In this document: piece after piece, positions 3,345-53,180 of the stretch
How the letters are laid out: every line of letters begins with the position of its first letter
Position numbering within the stretch: position 1 is the first letter of the stretch
DNA from: a virus
Length of the DNA stretch: 64,000 nucleotides
Direction: 5' to 3' (one strand)
IMG/VR virus record: IMGVR_UViG_3300029787_000002
Span: 32,001-96,000 of that record
The notes under the pieces: model-generated
What the model saw: the letters and a program-made list of their open reading frames with translations, nothing else
Database searches by the model: none
What the model was told of the DNA's origin: nothing
Position numbers and translations under genes: made by a program

Positions 3345-3367
3345 TTAAGAGTAACGACGGTTACGTC

Positions 3368-3534
3368 GGGAGTGACTGAATAAACTTACTGGCATATAGC
3401 TAGTTAAGGTGATGAGACACAGGTGGTGCTGCTACGAAAGTAGAATCGATTTACCAATCGGGTCTCAGGCAAGAATGTTTTTACTCTGTAGTAATGCCCA
3501 TTCTTTGTTGGTATACAGGATTCCAACCTCCCTC
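3368..3534 (+). ncRNA. Structured ncRNA resembling the manA motif / cyanophage CfrI-type RNA
   Basis: ORF-free region with terminal pairing GGGAG/CTCCC and helices ACTGGC/GCTAGT, TGAGAC/GTCTCA, CTAC-GAAA-GTAG, CGATT/AATCG and GTTGG/CCAAC. The core TTAAGGTGATG..ACAGGTGGTGCTGC is recalled as manA-like; family name is from memory. Confidence 0.65.
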
Positions 3535-3539
3535 TATAT

Positions 3540-6351: not shown

Positions 6352-6779
6352 TGAATCTGGAAAAACTGCAGGAACTGTGGAAGACAGATTGTCAGATCGA
6401 TACTGATTTGTATTGTGAAGAGTCAATCAAGATTCCACAGTTGCATCAAAGGTATTTGGAATTTTATAATACATACTCTCTTATGAAGAAGGAGAAAGAG
6501 GGTACGTTAAATGCATTAAAGAAAGATAAATGGTTATACTATAAAGGAAAAGCATCATCTCAAATCTACAAAGAGATGCCATTTGATTTAAAACTTACTA
6601 CTAAAGAAGAGATTTGGATGTTCATCGATGCAGATGAAGAGATCCGCAAGTTACGTTATAAGATTGATTATATCGATCAAGTATTATATTTCTTGGAAAA
6701 TGTTCTGAAGCAAATCAATACCAGAAATTTTCAAATTAAGAATGCTATTGAATGGACTAAGTGGAAAGAAGGTTCTTAA
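6351..6779 (+). CDS. uvsY: Recombination mediator UvsY
   Basis: ESIKIPQLH..YL and RNFQIKNAIEW; upstream of uvsW. Confidence 0.9.
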   Translation: MNLEKLQELWKTDCQIDTDLYCEESIKIPQLHQRYLEFYNTYSLMKKEKEGTLNALKKDKWLYYKGKASSQIYKEMPFDLKLTTKEEIWMFIDADEEIRKLRYKIDYIDQVLYFLENVLKQINTRNFQIKNAIEWTKWKEGS

Positions 6780-6812
6780 TACTCTGATACATAGTGTAGT
6801 GACTTGAACACT

Positions 6813-8285
6813 ATGTCAATGGATCTTAAGATCAAGAAGAAGAATGAAGTCTATCTTAAGGTTCAAGCAGAACCTCATATAAATTACGAGTTATCGGATT
6901 TCTTTACCTTTGAGGTTGAGTCTGCAAAGTTTATGCAGAAGCAAAGAAGGTGGAAAGGATGGGATGGAAAGATAAGATTATTCTCTCCTGCTACAGGGGA
7001 GATCTATTGTGGTCTCTATGATTATTTGGTTGACTACGCAAAGAAAAAGGGATACGAGTATGAGACGGAGACCGATGAGAATTTTGGTCATCCTGAAGAT
7101 GTGAATAAGTTTGTGACTCCTGAGGCAGTTGCAGGTTATATGAAATCGTTGAATCTTCCTGTAAAGGTACGCGACTACCAATATCAAGCAGTATACGAAT
7201 GCCTGAGATACAACAGACGACTCCTATTGTCGCCAACTGCCAGTGGGAAATCCTTGATGATTTATTCATTGGTTAGGTATCATGAAAAATTAGACAGAAG
7301 AATTCTTATCGTAGTTCCTACGACGTCTCTTGTTGAGCAAATGTACAAAGACTTTGAATCCTATGGATGGAAAGCGTCTGACTATTGCCACAAAATATAC
7401 GCGGGGCAAGAAAAATACACGAACCATGAAGTAGTAATCACCACTTGGCAGAGTATTTACAAGGAACCTAGTCAATGGTTTAGCAAATTTGATGTCGTGA
7501 TCGGTGACGAGGCGCACCAATTCAAAGCTAAATCTCTTACTTCTCTTATGGGTAAGTTGCATAACTGTAAGTATAGGTATGGATTTACAGGGACACTTGA
7601 TGGTGCAAATGTAAATCAGTTGACTCTAGAAGGATTGTTTGGTAGATGTACACAAGTAACAAGAACTAATGAGTTAATGAAGCAAGGATATATTGCAAAA
7701 CTAAAAGTTAAAATTGTATTATTGAAGCACGAAGAACAACTCTTCGAGGGATATCAGGATGAGATGAGTTATCTTGTAGAGCATGAAGGACGAAATAGAT
7801 TCATTCGTAACCTTGCTACAGATCTAAAAGGGAACACATTGATCCTCTTTAACTATGTAGAGCGTCATGGGGAACCTTTGTTTAACTTGATAAATAGTCA
7901 TGTGGAACGTCCAGTACATTTCGTGCACGGTGGTGTAGATGTTGAAGATCGAGAAGTGATTCGACAACTTACTGAAGTGTCTGACGATGCTATCATCATT
8001 GCCAGTTACGGAACGTTCTCTACAGGGATTAATATCAAAAACTTGCATAATGTAATTTTTGCTTCTCCTTCAAAATCAAGAGTCAGGAACTTACAGTCCA
8101 TTGGGCGAGTATTAAGGAAAGGAGAAAACAAATCACAAGCGACTTTGTATGATATTGCGGATGATATTTCTACTGATCGTGGAAATAACTATACTTTAAA
8201 TCATCTATTAGAACGAGTGAAAGTATACAATGAAGAAAAATTTAATTATGAAATTATAGACGTAAAACTAAAAGCCTATGATTAA
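6813..8285 (+). CDS. uvsW: UvsW SF2 helicase
   Basis: SPTASGKS, GDEAH, GFTGT and QSIGRVLR. Confidence 0.95.
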   Translation: MSMDLKIKKKNEVYLKVQAEPHINYELSDFFTFEVESAKFMQKQRRWKGWDGKIRLFSPATGEIYCGLYDYLVDYAKKKGYEYETETDENFGHPEDVNKFVTPEAVAGYMKSLNLPVKVRDYQYQAVYECLRYNRRLLLSPTASGKSLMIYSLVRYHEKLDRRILIVVPTTSLVEQMYKDFESYGWKASDYCHKIYAGQEKYTNHEVVITTWQSIYKEPSQWFSKFDVVIGDEAHQFKAKSLTSLMGKLHNCKYRYGFTGTLDGANVNQLTLEGLFGRCTQVTRTNELMKQGYIAKLKVKIVLLKHEEQLFEGYQDEMSYLVEHEGRNRFIRNLATDLKGNTLILFNYVERHGEPLFNLINSHVERPVHFVHGGVDVEDREVIRQLTEVSDDAIIIASYGTFSTGINIKNLHNVIFASPSKSRVRNLQSIGRVLRKGENKSQATLYDIADDISTDRGNNYTLNHLLERVKVYNEEKFNYEIIDVKLKAYD

Positions 8286-43658: not shown

Positions 43659-45955
43659 CACCACCAACAGAAACTAATGTAATCAAAAGAGATGGTGCTA
43701 AGACACCTCTTGATCTTGATAAGATTCATAAAATGGTCGAACTCGCTTGCGAAGGTCTCGCAGGTGTATCCGAGTCGGCAGTTGAGATGAATTCATCACT
43801 TCAAATCTTTGATGGCATTAAGACTTCTGACATCCAAGAGATTCTTATTCGTTCTGCGAATGATTTGATTTCTCTTGAAGCACCCAACTATCAATATGTG
43901 GCAGCAAGACTGCTACTGTTTAGTCTTAGAAAACAAGTATACGGTGAGCATCCAGACCGTCGCCCTAATCTATATCAGCATGTGAAAAAATGCATTGATC
44001 AGGGTGTATACGATGCAGGTATCTTGAGCAAGTATACAGAAGAAGAGTTCAATGTTCTAGATGGTTATCTAGATCATGATCGTGATTACTTGTTCACATA
44101 TGCAGGTATGCGTCAGGTCTCTGATAAATACCTTGTACAATGTCGTAGTACTGGAGAGGTGTATGAAACACCCCAGTTCATGTACATCATGGTTGCTGCG
44201 ACTCTCTTCCAAGATGATGACAAGTTCTATCGATTGGAGTACGTTAAAAAGTATTATGATGCAATCTCAAAACACAAACTCAACATCCCAACGCCAATCA
44301 TGGCAGGGGTCCGAACCCCTATTAGACAATTTGCTAGTTGTGTTCTTGTTGATGTTGATGACACCCTCGATAGTATCTTTAGCAGTGACATGGCGATTGG
44401 TAAATATGTTGCACAACGTGCGGGTATCGGCATCAACGCAGGCAGAATCCGTGGGATCAACAGTAAAATCAGGAGTGGAGAAGTTCAACACACAGGTGTT
44501 GTACCATTCCTCAAAAAATTTGAGGCGACTGTCAGATGCTGCACTCAAAATGGCATTCGAGGTGGAAGCGCGACTGTCCACTTCCCAATCTGGCACCAAG
44601 AAATAGAGGACATTATTGTTCTCAAGAATAACAAAGGGACAGAAGACAACCGAGTAAGGAAACTAGATTATAGTATTCAATTATCAAAATTATTTTATGA
44701 GAGATTCTGTCAGAATGCAGAAATTAGCTTATTCTCACCGCATGACGTACCAGGTCTGTATGATGCTTTTGGTACTGATGACTTTGACACTTTATATCGG
44801 ATGCATGAACTCAATGATGCTGTTCCGAGAAAGACTATCGGGGCACAAAAACTCTTTATGGATATTCTAAAGGAGAGAGCAGAGACTGGTCGTATCTATC
44901 TGATGAACATCGACCACTGTAACACTCACTCTTCCTTTAAAGACAAGGTGAACATGTCTAACCTTTGTCAGGAGATCACTCTACCTACAGATCCTATCCA
45001 ACATATTGATGGTAATGGTGAGATTGCTTTGTGCATTCTATCTGCTATCAACGTTGGTAAGATCAACAAGTTAGATGAACTCGATGAGTTATGTGATCTA
45101 GCAGTCAGAGGATTAGATGCTCTGATTGATTATCAGAACTATCCTGTACTTGCTGCAAAGCAAAGTACGCTTAACCGAAGATCATTAGGAATCGGTTATA
45201 TTGGTCTAGCACATTACCTTGCAAAGAATGGTGCGAAGTATGATTCACAGAAGGCATTCGACCTCGTTCATAAACTGTCTGAGAGGTTCCAGTATGCCCT
45301 TCTAACGACGTCAAATCGTCTCGCCATGGAGAAGGGTCCTTGCGGTTATTTTGGTAAAACAAAGTACGCTGATGGAATTCTTCCCATCGATACATATAAA
45401 CAGGACGTGGATGAAATTGTACCAAATGACCTTTCATGTGATTGGGAGTATCTCAGGGGTAGGATTGTTGAGTACGGATTACGGCACAGCACGTTGTCCG
45501 CACAGATGCCTTCGGAGAGCAGTTCCGTTGTGTCAAATGCAACCAATGGAATCGAACCACCTAGAGACTACTTGTCCGTTAAAAAATCAAAGAAAGGACC
45601 CCTTAAGCAGATTGTTCCATCATATACTACATTAAAGAATAACTATACCCTTCTATGGGATATGCATAACAATGACGGTTACATCAAAGTAACTGCCCTT
45701 ATGCAGAAATTCTTTGATCAAGCAATCTCAGGTAACTGGAGTTATAATCCAGAGAACTATCCTGACAACGAGGTCCCTGTCTCAGTGATGGCAAATGATC
45801 TTCTAACAACTTACAAGTATGGTTGGAAGACGTCGTATTATCAAAACACCTACGACATTAAAAAAGATGGTGAAGAACCTTCTAATAATGTAGATCAGTT
45901 AATCAATGAAATACTAACTACCGAGGAGGAAGATTGTGACAGTTGCAAAGTTTGA
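43655..45955 (+). CDS. nrdA: Ribonucleotide reductase class Ia alpha subunit
   Basis: ATP cone VIKRDG, SNLCQEI, MPSESSS and C-terminal CDSC. Confidence 0.97.
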   Translation: MTPPTETNVIKRDGAKTPLDLDKIHKMVELACEGLAGVSESAVEMNSSLQIFDGIKTSDIQEILIRSANDLISLEAPNYQYVAARLLLFSLRKQVYGEHPDRRPNLYQHVKKCIDQGVYDAGILSKYTEEEFNVLDGYLDHDRDYLFTYAGMRQVSDKYLVQCRSTGEVYETPQFMYIMVAATLFQDDDKFYRLEYVKKYYDAISKHKLNIPTPIMAGVRTPIRQFASCVLVDVDDTLDSIFSSDMAIGKYVAQRAGIGINAGRIRGINSKIRSGEVQHTGVVPFLKKFEATVRCCTQNGIRGGSATVHFPIWHQEIEDIIVLKNNKGTEDNRVRKLDYSIQLSKLFYERFCQNAEISLFSPHDVPGLYDAFGTDDFDTLYRMHELNDAVPRKTIGAQKLFMDILKERAETGRIYLMNIDHCNTHSSFKDKVNMSNLCQEITLPTDPIQHIDGNGEIALCILSAINVGKINKLDELDELCDLAVRGLDALIDYQNYPVLAAKQSTLNRRSLGIGYIGLAHYLAKNGAKYDSQKAFDLVHKLSERFQYALLTTSNRLAMEKGPCGYFGKTKYADGILPIDTYKQDVDEIVPNDLSCDWEYLRGRIVEYGLRHSTLSAQMPSESSSVVSNATNGIEPPRDYLSVKKSKKGPLKQIVPSYTTLKNNYTLLWDMHNNDGYIKVTALMQKFFDQAISGNWSYNPENYPDNEVPVSVMANDLLTTYKYGWKTSYYQNTYDIKKDGEEPSNNVDQLINEILTTEEEDCDSCKV

Positions 45956-47096
45956 CACTAAAGGAATGACCGTATTTAACAAGAATCAAGTAGACACAAA
46001 GAAACAACCAATGTTCTTTGGACAACCATTAGGAGTCCAAAGATATGATGAGTATAAGTATCCTGTCTTTGACAAACTTACTCAGCAACAACTTGGATAC
46101 TTCTGGAGACCAGAAGAAGTATCTTTACAGAAGGATCGTTCCGACTATCAAACTTTGACACCTGAGCAGAAGCACATCTTTACTTCTAACTTGAAGTATC
46201 AGATCATGCTTGATTCTGTACAGGGTAGAGGACCTGGAATGGCATTCATTCCTTACTGCTCCTTACCTGAGTTGGAAGCATGTATGACTGTATGGGAATT
46301 TATGGAAATGATTCATAGTCGTTCCTATACTTACATCATTAAGAATGTATATTCCAATCCTGGAGATGTATTCGATACTATCTTGGATGATGAGAATGTT
46401 ATGTCTCGTGCTAGTAGTGTTACAGCATCCTACGATGACTTCATTGAACATGCACATGATTATGACACTGGTTCAATGTGGGATCTAGCAAGAGATGGTC
46501 ACACAACAGGACTCTATGACAGAAAAGAACTTAAGAGAAAACTCTACAGAGCAATCGCCAACGTCAATATCCTCGAAGGAATCCGTTTCTATGTGTCGTT
46601 TGCGTGCTCGTTTGCTTTTGGCGAAAATAAACTTATGGAGGGTTCGGCAAAGATACTCTCTCTTATTGCTAGAGATGAAAGTCAACACTTGGTTATCACG
46701 CAGAATATCTTGAAGAAGTGGGCAGAAGGAGATGATCCTGAGATGCAAGAGATTGCTACTGAGGAGAAGGATCAAGTACAACATATGTTTATGAAGACTG
46801 TTGATGAAGAGAAGGCATGGGCAAACTACCTCTTTAAAGAAGGTAGTATGATCGGTCTAAATGAAAAACTACTTCATCAGTATGTTGAATGGATTGCTAA
46901 CAAAAGAATGAAAGCAATCGGTTTAGATCCTATCTATGATATTCCTGCTAGGAATAACCCTCTTCCATGGACACAACACTGGTTGAGTTCTAGAGGATTA
47001 CAAAACGCACCACAAGAAACGGAGATTGAAAGTTATGTCGTCGGAGGAATCAAACAAGACCTCAAAGCAGATGCCTTTGCAGGATTCAGTTTATGA
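45936..47096 (+). CDS. nrdB: Ribonucleotide reductase beta subunit
   Basis: FWRPEEV, EMIHSRSY, ARDESQH and APQETE..SY. Confidence 0.97.
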   Translation: MTVAKFDTKGMTVFNKNQVDTKKQPMFFGQPLGVQRYDEYKYPVFDKLTQQQLGYFWRPEEVSLQKDRSDYQTLTPEQKHIFTSNLKYQIMLDSVQGRGPGMAFIPYCSLPELEACMTVWEFMEMIHSRSYTYIIKNVYSNPGDVFDTILDDENVMSRASSVTASYDDFIEHAHDYDTGSMWDLARDGHTTGLYDRKELKRKLYRAIANVNILEGIRFYVSFACSFAFGENKLMEGSAKILSLIARDESQHLVITQNILKKWAEGDDPEMQEIATEEKDQVQHMFMKTVDEEKAWANYLFKEGSMIGLNEKLLHQYVEWIANKRMKAIGLDPIYDIPARNNPLPWTQHWLSSRGLQNAPQETEIESYVVGGIKQDLKADAFAGFSL

Positions 47097-47247
47097 TGAC
47101 CTTTTAGATAAGGGAAATGAGATTGGTCCAGACGTGACAGACATGCTCTGGACTGCTGCTAAGAAGGAAGCATTAAGAAATATTAAAGAATAGAATAAAT
47201 TGTTCTAAAATGTAACGAGGTGAACTACAAATGTCAGGAAACTGTGT

Positions 47248-47255
47248 TATAAATA
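47248..47255 (+). promoter_or_regulatory. Late promoter / extended -10-like element
   Basis: TG-T-TATAAATA. Confidence 0.7.
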
Positions 47256-47260
47256 TAACA

Positions 47261-47293
47261 GTAGCAAAGAATACATTATGTATCCGCTGCTAC
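47261..47293. promoter_or_regulatory. Two NtcA-type boxes in an inverted repeat
   Basis: GTAGCAAAGAATAC (47261-47274) and GTATCCGCTGCTAC (47280-47293), each GTA-N8-TAC. Confidence 0.55.
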
Positions 47294-47299
47294 CGTCTA

Positions 47300-47551
47300 C
47301 GTTCATCACCTTCGGGTGACGCAAGTAGGTCGCGGAACGGAGCGTTCATCTCATGATACACTTAGTCGGACTACTACTAGCAAGTGGCATGACCTGTGCC
47401 GATATATCTGCAAAGATGGATCGAGTCAGGAACCATAAAGATCCATCACTAACTCCTGTTGCAAAGCAGGAAATTATTGAGGTCTATAGGATACATTTGG
47501 TGGAAGTATTAGGACTACAGTGCGACTGGGACGCAAACGACTGAAGGAACG
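47300..47551 (+). ncRNA. Tandem glutamine-riboswitch (glnA-type) aptamers
   Basis: Aptamer 1 is CGTTCA-TCACC-TTCG-GGTGA-CGCAAGTAGGTCGCG-GAACG (47300-47339). Aptamer 2 is CGTTCA-TCTCA-[ORF]-TGGGA-CGCAAACGACTGAAG-GAACG (47343-47551). Confidence 0.75.
47353..47544 (+). CDS. Small protein nested in riboswitch aptamer 2
   Basis: 63-aa ORF with a hydrophobic start and two Cys, ending CDWDAND. Confidence 0.65.
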   Translation: MIHLVGLLLASGMTCADISAKMDRVRNHKDPSLTPVAKQEIIEVYRIHLVEVLGLQCDWDAND

Positions 47552-47615
47552 GGTAAACGGATCCACCGCAAGGTGAGAAGGTTAACTATCCAACTACTTT
47601 AGGAGAAAAAAACAA

Positions 47616-47750
47616 ATGGCAAAAGTCGTTTACCGTGGGGTTCAATACAACCCAGAGGAGTACAAGGCAAAAGTACTCGCAGAAGCAGCACAAGAAAGAA
47701 ATCACGAACTTATGTATCGTGGTATCAAACTTGTAAAAAACTATAAGTGA
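47616..47750 (+). CDS. DUF4278-like small protein (not in the ORF track)
   Basis: AGGAG RBS; MAKVVYRGVQY...ELMYRGIKL with two YRG motifs. Confidence 0.8.
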   Translation: MAKVVYRGVQYNPEEYKAKVLAEAAQERNHELMYRGIKLVKNYK

Positions 47751-47760
47751 GGTTAGAACT

Positions 47761-47850
47761 ATGGAAGTACTTCAAATTAGTATCGCCATGGTGGTTTTCT
47801 TAGCACTTATCTATGGTGAGGTTCAGTTACTGTTTAGAACAGGACACTGA
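47761..47850 (+). CDS. 29-aa membrane peptide
   Basis: GAGG RBS; MEVLQISIAMVVFLALIYGEVQLLFRTGH. Confidence 0.5.
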   Translation: MEVLQISIAMVVFLALIYGEVQLLFRTGH

Positions 47851-47854
47851 AGCA

Positions 47855-48031
47855 ATGAAAATCAGTCTGGAGTTTGATTCCCGTAACTGGGATTACAATC
47901 TTCCAGAATATGATGAAGACATACATGACCCTGAACAGGTCTTTGCCCTGTTATGTTACCGTGGAATACACTACGCTAAGTGGGTTACTTTAAATCCATT
48001 TCTCGTATCACCAAACTGGAAGATTAAATAG
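47855..48031 (+). CDS. Small protein with a YRG motif
   Basis: HDPEQVFALLCYRGIHYAKW. Confidence 0.6.
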   Translation: MKISLEFDSRNWDYNLPEYDEDIHDPEQVFALLCYRGIHYAKWVTLNPFLVSPNWKIK

Positions 48032-48123: not shown

Positions 48124-48792
48124 ATGAAACTTTTTCTGGACTGTTCTGATGCTGAGTTAATCAAAACCTATTACGAAACAGGATTGATTGATGGTGTCAC
48201 AACGAACCCATCACTCATGCTGAAGGCAGGTGAAGATCCCATGGAAGTATACAAAAAGATCTCAGATATCTTTCCATTCCATGCATCAATCTCTGCAGAG
48301 GTAGTAGGTGACACAGCACAAGAAATGTTAGATCAAGCAGAACCCTTGATTGACATTGGACCAAATATTACTATCAAGGTTCCATGCACCCCTCAGGGTT
48401 TAAAAGCATGTAAAGATTTGTCTGATGATGAAGTACCAGTAAACGTTACTTTGGTATTTGATACTTGTCAAGCAATCTTAGCAAGTAAAGCAGGAGCAAC
48501 ATATGTGTCTCCTTTTGTAGGTAGAGTCTATGACCAGTCGTTTGATGGCATTGGAGTCATCGAAGAGATTGCAGATGTATTCGCAACTCATAACTCAACT
48601 ACTCAAGTTCTAGCAGCATCTATTAGAGAGGTGTATCAGGTCGCCCAATCATTCAAAGTGGGTGCTGATATCTGTACTATCCCAGGTAAAGTATTTGCAG
48701 GGATGTACTCTCATATATTAACAGACAAAGGTCTGGAGACTTTTGATAGAGACTGGAAGAATCTACACGACGAATTGGGAAAGAAGAGTTGA
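48124..48792 (+). CDS. talC: Transaldolase TalC
   Basis: DGVTTNPSL, IKVP, VNVTLVF, SPFVGR and LAASIR. Confidence 0.96.
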   Translation: MKLFLDCSDAELIKTYYETGLIDGVTTNPSLMLKAGEDPMEVYKKISDIFPFHASISAEVVGDTAQEMLDQAEPLIDIGPNITIKVPCTPQGLKACKDLSDDEVPVNVTLVFDTCQAILASKAGATYVSPFVGRVYDQSFDGIGVIEEIADVFATHNSTTQVLAASIREVYQVAQSFKVGADICTIPGKVFAGMYSHILTDKGLETFDRDWKNLHDELGKKS

Positions 48793-49640: not shown

Positions 49641-49799
49641 ATGAGTTGGATTGATTTCCTAGACGCTGACGTTGAAGAGGATTACCTCGACGTCCAGATC
49701 GATAAGTTGCATACTCTCGTTGACTTAGGTTACGAAGAGGATGCTGAAAAGTTGAATCTGAATATCAAAACTGCCTCCAAAATTCTTTTGGGTCAGTAG
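49641..49799 (+). CDS. Small acidic protein whose stop codon lies inside the tRNA
   Basis: 52-aa ORF MSWIDFLDADVEED...KILLGQ*. Confidence 0.5.
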   Translation: MSWIDFLDADVEEDYLDVQIDKLHTLVDLGYEEDAEKLNLNIKTASKILLGQ

Positions 49800-49862
49800 C
49801 ACAGCGGATAGTGCAACTGCCTTCTAAGCAGTCGGTCGCAGGTTCAAATCCTGCCTGACCCG
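49790..49862 (+). tRNA. tRNA-Arg(TCT)
   Basis: Acceptor stem GGGTCAG/CTGACCC, anticodon arm ACTGC-CTTCTAA-GCAGT, T arm GCAGG-TTCAAAT-CCTGC; CCA not encoded. Confidence 0.95.
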
Positions 49863-53033: not shown

Positions 53034-53082
53034 AATCAACTGGGTGAGGATTTCCTCACCTTTTCAATGTGCACTCCGCAAA

Positions 53083-53180
53083 CCGAGACCTATAGGGTGC
53101 CTAAACGAGTCTCTCATACCTCCGCCTGAGGGTGGCGAAGGAATATCTTATCAGTGTTTCCCTGCACTATTATCTAACCC
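53083..53180 (+). ncRNA. PhotoRC-II-like psbA leader RNA
   Basis: GAGAC/GTCTC helix, CGCC-TGAGGGT-GGCG, and AGTG-TTTCCCTG-CACT (loop CCCT can pair with AGGG); directly upstream of psbA. Family name is from memory. Confidence 0.7.

Follow-up and report, generated by a model that had tools for sequence, protein, structure and literature searches.

The window analysed here is a stretch of 64,000 nt from a T4-like cyanomyovirus (IMG/VR record IMGVR_UViG_3300029787_000002; 172.9 kb, 99% complete), and the records closest to it are P-RSM1 and other Kyanoviridae. A core-pattern scan of the whole genome found exactly two glutamine-riboswitch cores, both on the + strand, and the reversed pattern, run on the same genome as a control, found none. 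This double core is located between nrdB and talC, and elsewhere in the window a manA RNA, a tRNA and a PhotoRC-II RNA score above their Rfam gathering scores:

45936-47096, nrdB
48124-48792, talC
3350-3537, manA RNA (184.9 bits)
49790-49862, tRNA (72.7 bits)
53056-53154, PhotoRC-II RNA (61.3 bits)

The first core (unit 1) reads CGUUC-A-UCACC-UUCG-GGUGA-CGCAAGUA-GGUCG-C-GGAACG and spans 47300-47339. It is followed by a GAG linker and by the 5' part of unit 2 (CGUUC-A-UCUCA, 47343-47353), whose 3' part (UGGGA-CGCAAA-CGACU-GAA-GGAACG, 47527-47551) lies beyond a small gene. The elements of the locus are listed below, labelled according to the nested model that we develop in the text.

47300-47304, + strand, CGUUC, 5' strand of the outer P1 (partner GAACG, 47547-47551, in the nested model; invariant in 181 loci)
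47306-47319, + strand, P2 of the outer aptamer, UCACC-UUCG-GGUGA (first two pairs covary)
47320-47327, + strand, CGCAAGUA, the outer junction CGCA and the E-loop 5' strand AGUA (47324-47327), with linchpin base C47322
47328-47332, + strand, X1, GGUCG, 5' strand of the shared P3 (partner 47538-47542)
47334-47339, + strand, GGAACG of unit 1
47335-47347, + strand, inner P1' hairpin GAACG-GAG-CGUUC (predicted in the window fold and by RNAalifold)
47343-47347, + strand, CGUUC of unit 2
47349-47353, + strand, UCUCA, 5' strand of the inner P2 (A47353 is the A of the start codon)
47353-47544, + strand, nested gene, 63 aa, phrog_504 (open reading frame, profile match, conservation)
47527-47537, + strand, UGGGA, 3' strand of the inner P2 (47527-47531), and inner junction CGCAAA (C47534 opposite G47340)
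47538-47542, + strand, X2, CGACU, 3' strand of the shared P3 (covaries with X1)
47541-47546, + strand, CUGAAG, the E-loop 3' strand (GAA, 47543-47545) and apparent anti-SD, complementary to CUUUAG at 47597-47602
47547-47552, + strand, GAACG, 3' strand of the outer P1, and linchpin partner G47552
47558-47591, + strand, optional structured insert GGAU...AUCC, enclosing the GNRA hairpin CACC-GCAA-GGUG (47564-47575)
47597-47605, + strand, CUUUAG, overlapping the downstream SD AGGAG (47601-47605)
47616-47750, + strand, downstream DUF4278-like (IF17-like) gene, 44 aa, the presumed regulated output

The first-pass annotation of this DNA had described two aptamers, the first with a P2 closed by UUCG and the second with a P2 (UCUCA/UGGGA) enclosing about 173 nt of open reading frame. 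These positions were borne out by the sequence, as were the start of the AUG on the final base of the P2 5' strand, the double use of the last codons (TGG GAC GCA AAC GAC TGA) as the 3' core of the aptamer, and the complementarity of GGUCG in unit 1 to CGACU in unit 2.

The same layout was found in P-RSM1, P-TIM40, S-SSM5 and S-SM1, and 341 phage records match the region, mainly via aptamer pieces. Scans of IMG/VR for the junction pattern, with linkers of 3 nt and of 4-14 nt, gave 181 distinct loci after parsing, and in all of them the linker between the units measures 3-6 nt. Covariation statistics were obtained from an alignment of 80 relatives, the 181 loci serving as the larger set. A scan of viral contigs for a base other than G following the first GGAACG, in combination with a 3-nt linker, gave 117 matches, none of them genuine. 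When genome contigs were scanned for the junction, 120 chance matches in unrelated bacteria were returned, a result with no bearing on cyanobacterial genomes; the single core-like word among them was rejected as an aptamer.

At gathering thresholds, Rfam reports no glutamine riboswitch at the locus. Under relaxed thresholds the Glutamine model (RF01739) matched unit 1 with 29.4 bits (E 2.4e-4; gathering score 35), and unit 2 went undetected even then. Since the covariance model built for this locus (R1, below) is unable to span the 173-nt insert, natural relatives lacking the open reading frame were used in place of an in-silico deletion. There unit 2 takes the form of a simple hairpin aptamer whose flanks match those of the window, and aptamer 2 of one such relative (L036) scored 34.1 bits (E 7e-6) against the Glutamine model, with the P3 region skipped, which answers whether the loop-deleted unit fits a glutamine aptamer. 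A covariance model built on 28 such relatives with the nested structure (R1) gave only a spurious 26-bit partial match in the window. The Glutamine-II model (RF01704) reached 25.6 bits against a gathering score of 33, its 3' pseudoknot stem enclosing GGAACG being left unaligned.

Taken part by part, the RF01739 fold is distributed over the two units. The P2 hairpin after CGUUCA is present in both, and both stems covary. The P1 strands occur in two copies each and are invariant in the 181 loci, leaving their pairing partners unreadable from covariation. The sarcin-ricin-type E-loop (AGUA/GAA) beside P3 is complete only for the composite and in neither unit alone, with AGUA found in unit 1 only and GAA or AAA in unit 2 only. 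The local P3 hairpin is absent and a long-range helix between the units stands in its place; the linchpin, counterpart of the G23-C60 pair, is present as a Watson-Crick C-G or G-C pair.

Among the 80 relatives, the long-range P2 of unit 2 is paired in 97%, with CG/UA/UG and CG/UA/AU exchanges, and the P2 of unit 1 varies at its first pair (UA 68, AU 10, CG 2) and its second (CG 66, UA 12). For the helix between X1 and X2, pairing stands at 90.6%, and 5 of its 8 pairs show double changes; none of 500 shuffles reached the observed covariation score, and sliding the strands as a control brought pairing down to 28-48%. The P2 of unit 2 and the GGUCG/CGACU pair proposed in the first-pass annotation thus both covary among relatives, and its observation that neither unit has a P3 of its own holds, a covarying long-range helix between the units being found instead. 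Variants of this shared helix include AGUCG/CGACU, AGUCA/UGACU and GGUCG/CGACU, and other loci carry an 8-bp form whose eighth pair is U-A, A-U (about 19) or G-C (3) without exception in the 181 loci. We had considered local 2-bp mini-hairpins of the type AG-NNNN-CU as each unit's own P3, and these were rejected because the base at position 8 of X1 (U, A or G) changes in step with the other unit rather than with the A of its own. In the 8-bp form, loci with X1 = AGCCGACU and X2 = AGCCGACU (e.g. L012 and L264) are systematically mismatched (C.A and A.C) at positions 3 and 6, with U-A and A-U restored in a few loci; protonated A+.C pairs or a motif other than a helix may underlie the mismatches.

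These data bear directly on another reading of the locus, that it holds two independent tandem riboswitches with a chance complementarity and a mis-called open reading frame. There is precedent for it in the literature, where 157 glutamine doublets are listed as independent, pseudo-cooperative units (PMC9481103), and where the alignment of Weinberg 2010, which included such metagenomic sequences, aligned unit 1 alone and left unit 2 and the open reading frame as flank. The covariation of the shared helix, the linchpin and P2 contradicts this reading, the open reading frame is conserved, and P3 and a complete E-loop are missing from either unit taken alone. Neither aptamer is structurally complete, as independence would require, P3 being shared, the E-loop split and the linchpin crossed, and we regard the reading as hardly credible.

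How the two units are joined was examined through the linchpin. In the solved glutamine aptamer a ligand-dependent G23-C60 pair is formed (structure of Ren et al. 2015, as quoted in PMC6212724), and its counterparts here are base three of CG(N)A and the nucleotide that follows GGAACG. The outer linchpin, C47322-G47552, runs from the core of unit 1 to the base after the GGAACG of unit 2 and covaries in the 80 relatives (CG 68, GC 12, none broken), with 99.4% of cells paired. The inner one, C47534 opposite G47340, is GC in 79 of 80. If each core is instead given its own linchpin, G.G and C.C appositions result in 12-13 of the 80. On a subfamily tree the linchpin class needs 3-4 state changes, and the supported branches force only one, so that the independent support from linchpin class is limited. 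RNAalifold, given the 28 relatives without the open reading frame and no structure input, predicted the outermost CGUUC/GAACG pair and the middle GAACG-GAG-CGUUC hairpin. The minimum-energy fold of the full-length window sequence recovers P1' and the long-range P2 and differs from the proposed fold in the rest, leaving the topology undecided.

In the E-loop, the shared P3 and the linchpin alike, one partner comes from the 5' half of unit 1 and the other from the 3' half of unit 2. The simplest reading is that one aptamer lies inside the P3 of the other; the inner core is without an E-loop. With the P1 strands invariant, the case for P1 swapping draws on the linchpin class, the homology to the crystal structure and the fold that RNAalifold predicts. 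The alternative topology is that of two self-closed aptamers, each with its own P1, touching only through a kissing GGUCG/CGACU helix. The P1 of unit 1 would be able to form first during transcription, and the own linchpins are likewise C-G in 160+ loci. In 15-16 loci, however, the own linchpins would be G.G and C.C, against G-C and C-G for the swapped ones, AGUA and GAA belong to separate units, and the nested fold is the RNAalifold consensus and requires no pseudoknot, making the self-closed topology improbable. Of the interlocked double aptamer put forward in the first-pass annotation, the covarying helix joining the units therefore stands, and the picture of two self-closed kissing aptamers probably does not, given the split E-loop, the crossed linchpin and RNAalifold. 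Since both the own and the swapped linchpins are possible in most loci, the RNA may interconvert between the two. One IMG/VR contig (L091, ~6520-6900 of the oriented locus) has a triple arrangement with AGUA-type strands in two units and a GAA-type strand in one; the AGCCGACU of its first unit is without a partner strand.

The gene enclosed by the inner P2 matches phrog_504 over residues 5-63 (E 9.6e-19), and neither it nor the other nested open reading frames belong to a Pfam family. Its protein carries two invariant cysteines, C15 and C57, and three helices are predicted in the AlphaFold model (pLDDT 78). Orthologues are annotated as hypothetical, and as 'T4-like GC 430' in S-SM1 and S-SSM5. 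Conservation of the gene is clear: 139 of 141 long inserts in unit 2 hold an intact ATG open reading frame, the exceptions being one TTG start and one mis-parsed triple, and substitutions in the largest group favour third positions (0.35/0.17/0.48). Long P2 inserts in unit 1 also carry an open reading frame (46 of 47), mostly of phrog_6471, and the nested families include phrog_13397 as well; phrog_504 and phrog_6471 align cysteine to cysteine (hhalign, 75%, E 2.6e-5). Across the 181 loci, the P2 loops are occupied in neither aptamer (28), in aptamer 2 only (106), in both (33) or in aptamer 1 only (14).

The position of the nested genes relative to the aptamer is nearly constant. The ATG of the unit-2 genes falls 3-5 nt after CGUUCA, and in 131 of 138 cases a single nucleotide separates their stop from GGAACG. 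The class with a GAG linker and a 5-bp cross-pair comprises 74 loci with an open reading frame and none without, and the GAG loop with its preceding G forms GGAG, 10 nt 5' of the nested AUG, which is likely the SD of the nested gene. Many unit-1 genes (e.g. in L014, L027 and L118) end in ...GRK with the UAA of the E-loop strand AGUAA as their stop, and the unit-2 genes use the UGA or UAA inside CU(G/A)AA. Each of the two E-loop strands thus also supplies a stop codon.

It could be argued that these genes are passengers: the composite aptamer would control the DUF4278-like gene only, and the P2 loops would be tolerant sites where recombination at the repeated cores shuffles open reading frames whose translation carries no regulatory meaning. 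All four occupancy states exist among the 181 loci, several families (phrog_504, 6471 and 13397) are found, a single family occurs in either position (aptamer 1 of L010 and aptamer 2 of L075; 62% identity, E 2e-22), and the cores are identical in kind with or without a gene. Against this, the start and stop positions are fixed relative to the aptamer and the GGAG linker occurs only alongside an open reading frame. Neutrality is also physically unlikely, as a translating ribosome cannot avoid unfolding the sensor. We see the passenger explanation as a possible one, though with the odds against it.

Downstream, the 44-aa protein scores just below the Pfam cut-off for DUF4278 (PF14105; 24.5 bits, cut-off 25.3) and matches phrog_5049 (1.1e-21), and its orthologues in P-TIM40 and S-SSM5 are annotated as DUF4278. 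The motif CU(G/A)AAG, made up of the end of X2 and the E-loop 3' strand, is the complement of CUU(Y)AG at the SD of this gene. At the variable position of this pairing we counted A-U in 50 loci, G-C in 45, G.U in 51 and A.C in none (Fisher 5.6e-11, phylogeny ignored), and the helix appears in the local minimum-energy folds of 3 loci. From its sequence, the CUGAAG strand looks like an anti-SD of the DUF4278-like gene. In loci with C as the linchpin partner, a CUCUUU tail pairs with AAGGAG instead, an SD pairing of the type proposed for gifB (PMC6212724). A pairing of AAGUAG (47323-47328) with CUACUU upstream of the SD was rejected: this target is not conserved in many loci, for which reason the CUGAAG/CUUYAG pairing is preferred. 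Only some of the loci have the optional insert (47558-47591), its stem varying there in a compensatory way (CAGC-GAAA-GCUG, CUGC-GUAA-GCAG, CCUC-GCAA-GAGG), and its GNRA hairpin possibly makes a tetraloop contact.

Two NtcA-type boxes (GTA-N8-TAC; 47261-47274 and 47280-47293) were observed immediately 5' of the first CGUUC. P-RSM1 has one such box at the equivalent place, and other relatives have there a TTGACT-17-TATAAT promoter within a palindrome. In combining NtcA boxes, a glutamine sensor and an IF17-like gene, the locus mimics the region that controls gifB in the host. Among metatranscriptome contigs, some are identical to the window over 47358-47527, 47452-47618 and 47506-47692, which reflects presence in the libraries only and is no proof of transcription or of its start, strand or level; 47074-47295 is without such cover, a gap that does not by itself point to a transcription start. 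A 29-aa hydrophobic open reading frame (47761-47850) lies 3' of the DUF4278-like gene, followed by one of 72 aa (47813-48031) with a second YRG motif (CYRGIHYAKW). Both may be more members of the same small operon before talC.

Our preferred reading, drawn from sequence and alignment, is that the locus is probably one composite glutamine sensor made of two type-1 (glnA-type) cores, one inside the other. The outer aptamer would comprise P1 (47300-47304/47547-47551), the UUCG-hairpin P2, the AGUA/GAA E-loop, P3 (GGUCG/CGACU) and the C47322-G47552 linchpin. The inner aptamer would sit within the 'loop' of the outer P3, with the 47335-47347 hairpin as its P1, UCUCA/UGGGA as its P2 and CGCAAA as its junction, using the opposite end of the shared P3, so that two three-way junctions would stand on one P3 helix and the inner P2 loop would bear a translated 63-codon gene. 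We infer that both cores bind glutamine and that the locus responds as follows. Without glutamine, CUGAAG would pair with CUUUAG and mask the SD of the DUF4278-like gene, and the exposed GGAG and AUG would allow the nested gene to be translated. With glutamine, both cores would lock, CUGAAG would be captured in the E-loop, P3 and P1, the downstream SD would be freed (an ON switch, like the gifB riboswitch), and the nested start would be buried in P1' and P2 (OFF). A ribosome completing the nested gene would unwind the whole 3' half and could thereby reset the sensor.

The first-pass annotation had also held that ligand binding and translation of the nested gene exclude each other. On physical grounds the analysis supports this for folding and translation, since a ribosome on the nested gene must unwind the 3' strand of P2, the shared helix, the E-loop strand and P1. 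The toggle it drew between the nested gene and the DUF4278-like gene is something that we only infer. The nested stop (UGA, 47542-47544) lies inside the apparent anti-SD, so nested translation could open the downstream SD rather than oppose it. Unmasking of an SD by a terminating ribosome is an established mechanism of translational coupling. In such a coupled arrangement, nested translation would end on the strand that pairs with CUUUAG and the SD, the two genes would be co-expressed, and glutamine would offer a second, ribosome-independent route (an OR gate). However, the nested stop is 71 nt from the next AUG with a structured insert in between, and the anti-SD is unchanged in relatives lacking the nested gene; coupling seems to us unlikely. 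Returning to the composite sensor, a wider proposal can be made tentatively. The 'tandem' glutamine riboswitches of phages might be single two-site nested sensors that host translated genes, are reset by ribosomes and place the nested gene(s) and the IF17-like gene under reciprocal glutamine control, the cores also acting as scaffolds for recombination, by which cassettes of small genes would be shuffled from phage to phage.

The usual view takes a riboswitch aptamer to be a compact module free of coding sequence, and the members of a glutamine tandem to be independent of each other. The locus departs from this view, as a known ligand-binding fold appears divided over two units, with one core inside the other and complete protein genes enclosed by its stems. 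This layout is widespread among cyanomyoviruses, both marine and freshwater, and standard Rfam scans miss it; covariance-model searches should permit very long hairpin insertions. It suggests a two-site, possibly cooperative, glutamine sensor, provides a natural case where translation would compete with metabolite sensing on one RNA, and would tie the phage's control of an IF17-like factor, probably directed at glutamine synthetase, to the nitrogen status of the host. Our literature search found no published description of a gene-enclosing nested double glutamine aptamer, and the cyanophage papers only list the riboswitch.

The closest known system is the type 1 glutamine riboswitch (glnA RNA, RF01739), as in the leader of Synechocystis gifB/IF17 (PMC6212724). 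The phage locus shares with it the CGUUC/GGAACG P1, the A, P2 and the CG(G/C)A junction, as well as the AGUA/GAA E-loop, P3, the linchpin, a downstream gene of the DUF4278 type and an anti-SD adjoining the 3' end of the aptamer. It differs in that the parts of the aptamer are spread over two units, with a second core in P3 and genes in the P2 loops, and in that it scores below the Rfam gathering score. Glutamine-II (Downstream-peptide, RF01704) has a CGUUCA...CGCA...GGAACGG core without an E-loop that resembles the inner core of the phage, and shares the marine picocyanobacterial and phage niche and the DUF4278 genes, but the phage locus is without the pseudoknot stem. Glycine doublets, which act on one platform, and glutamine doublets (PMC9481103) likewise have two like aptamers per leader, with possibly two sites and one output. 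Unlike in these tandems, the phage cores are not serial: they have a helix in common, and in the nested model their P1 strands are exchanged and one lies inside the other. The group I and II introns with loop open reading frames likewise keep a protein gene in the loop of a structured or catalytic RNA whose stems close around it, whereas in the phage the RNA that hosts the gene is a ligand-sensing part of an mRNA leader, with a functional core that includes the gene's own start and stop. Finally, in leader-peptide and translational-coupling switches (attenuation, ribosome-unmasked SDs) the position of the ribosome on a short upstream open reading frame likewise selects the RNA structure; in the phage locus, by contrast, the upstream frame is a conserved protein gene of 50-70 aa and its competitor is a metabolite aptamer.
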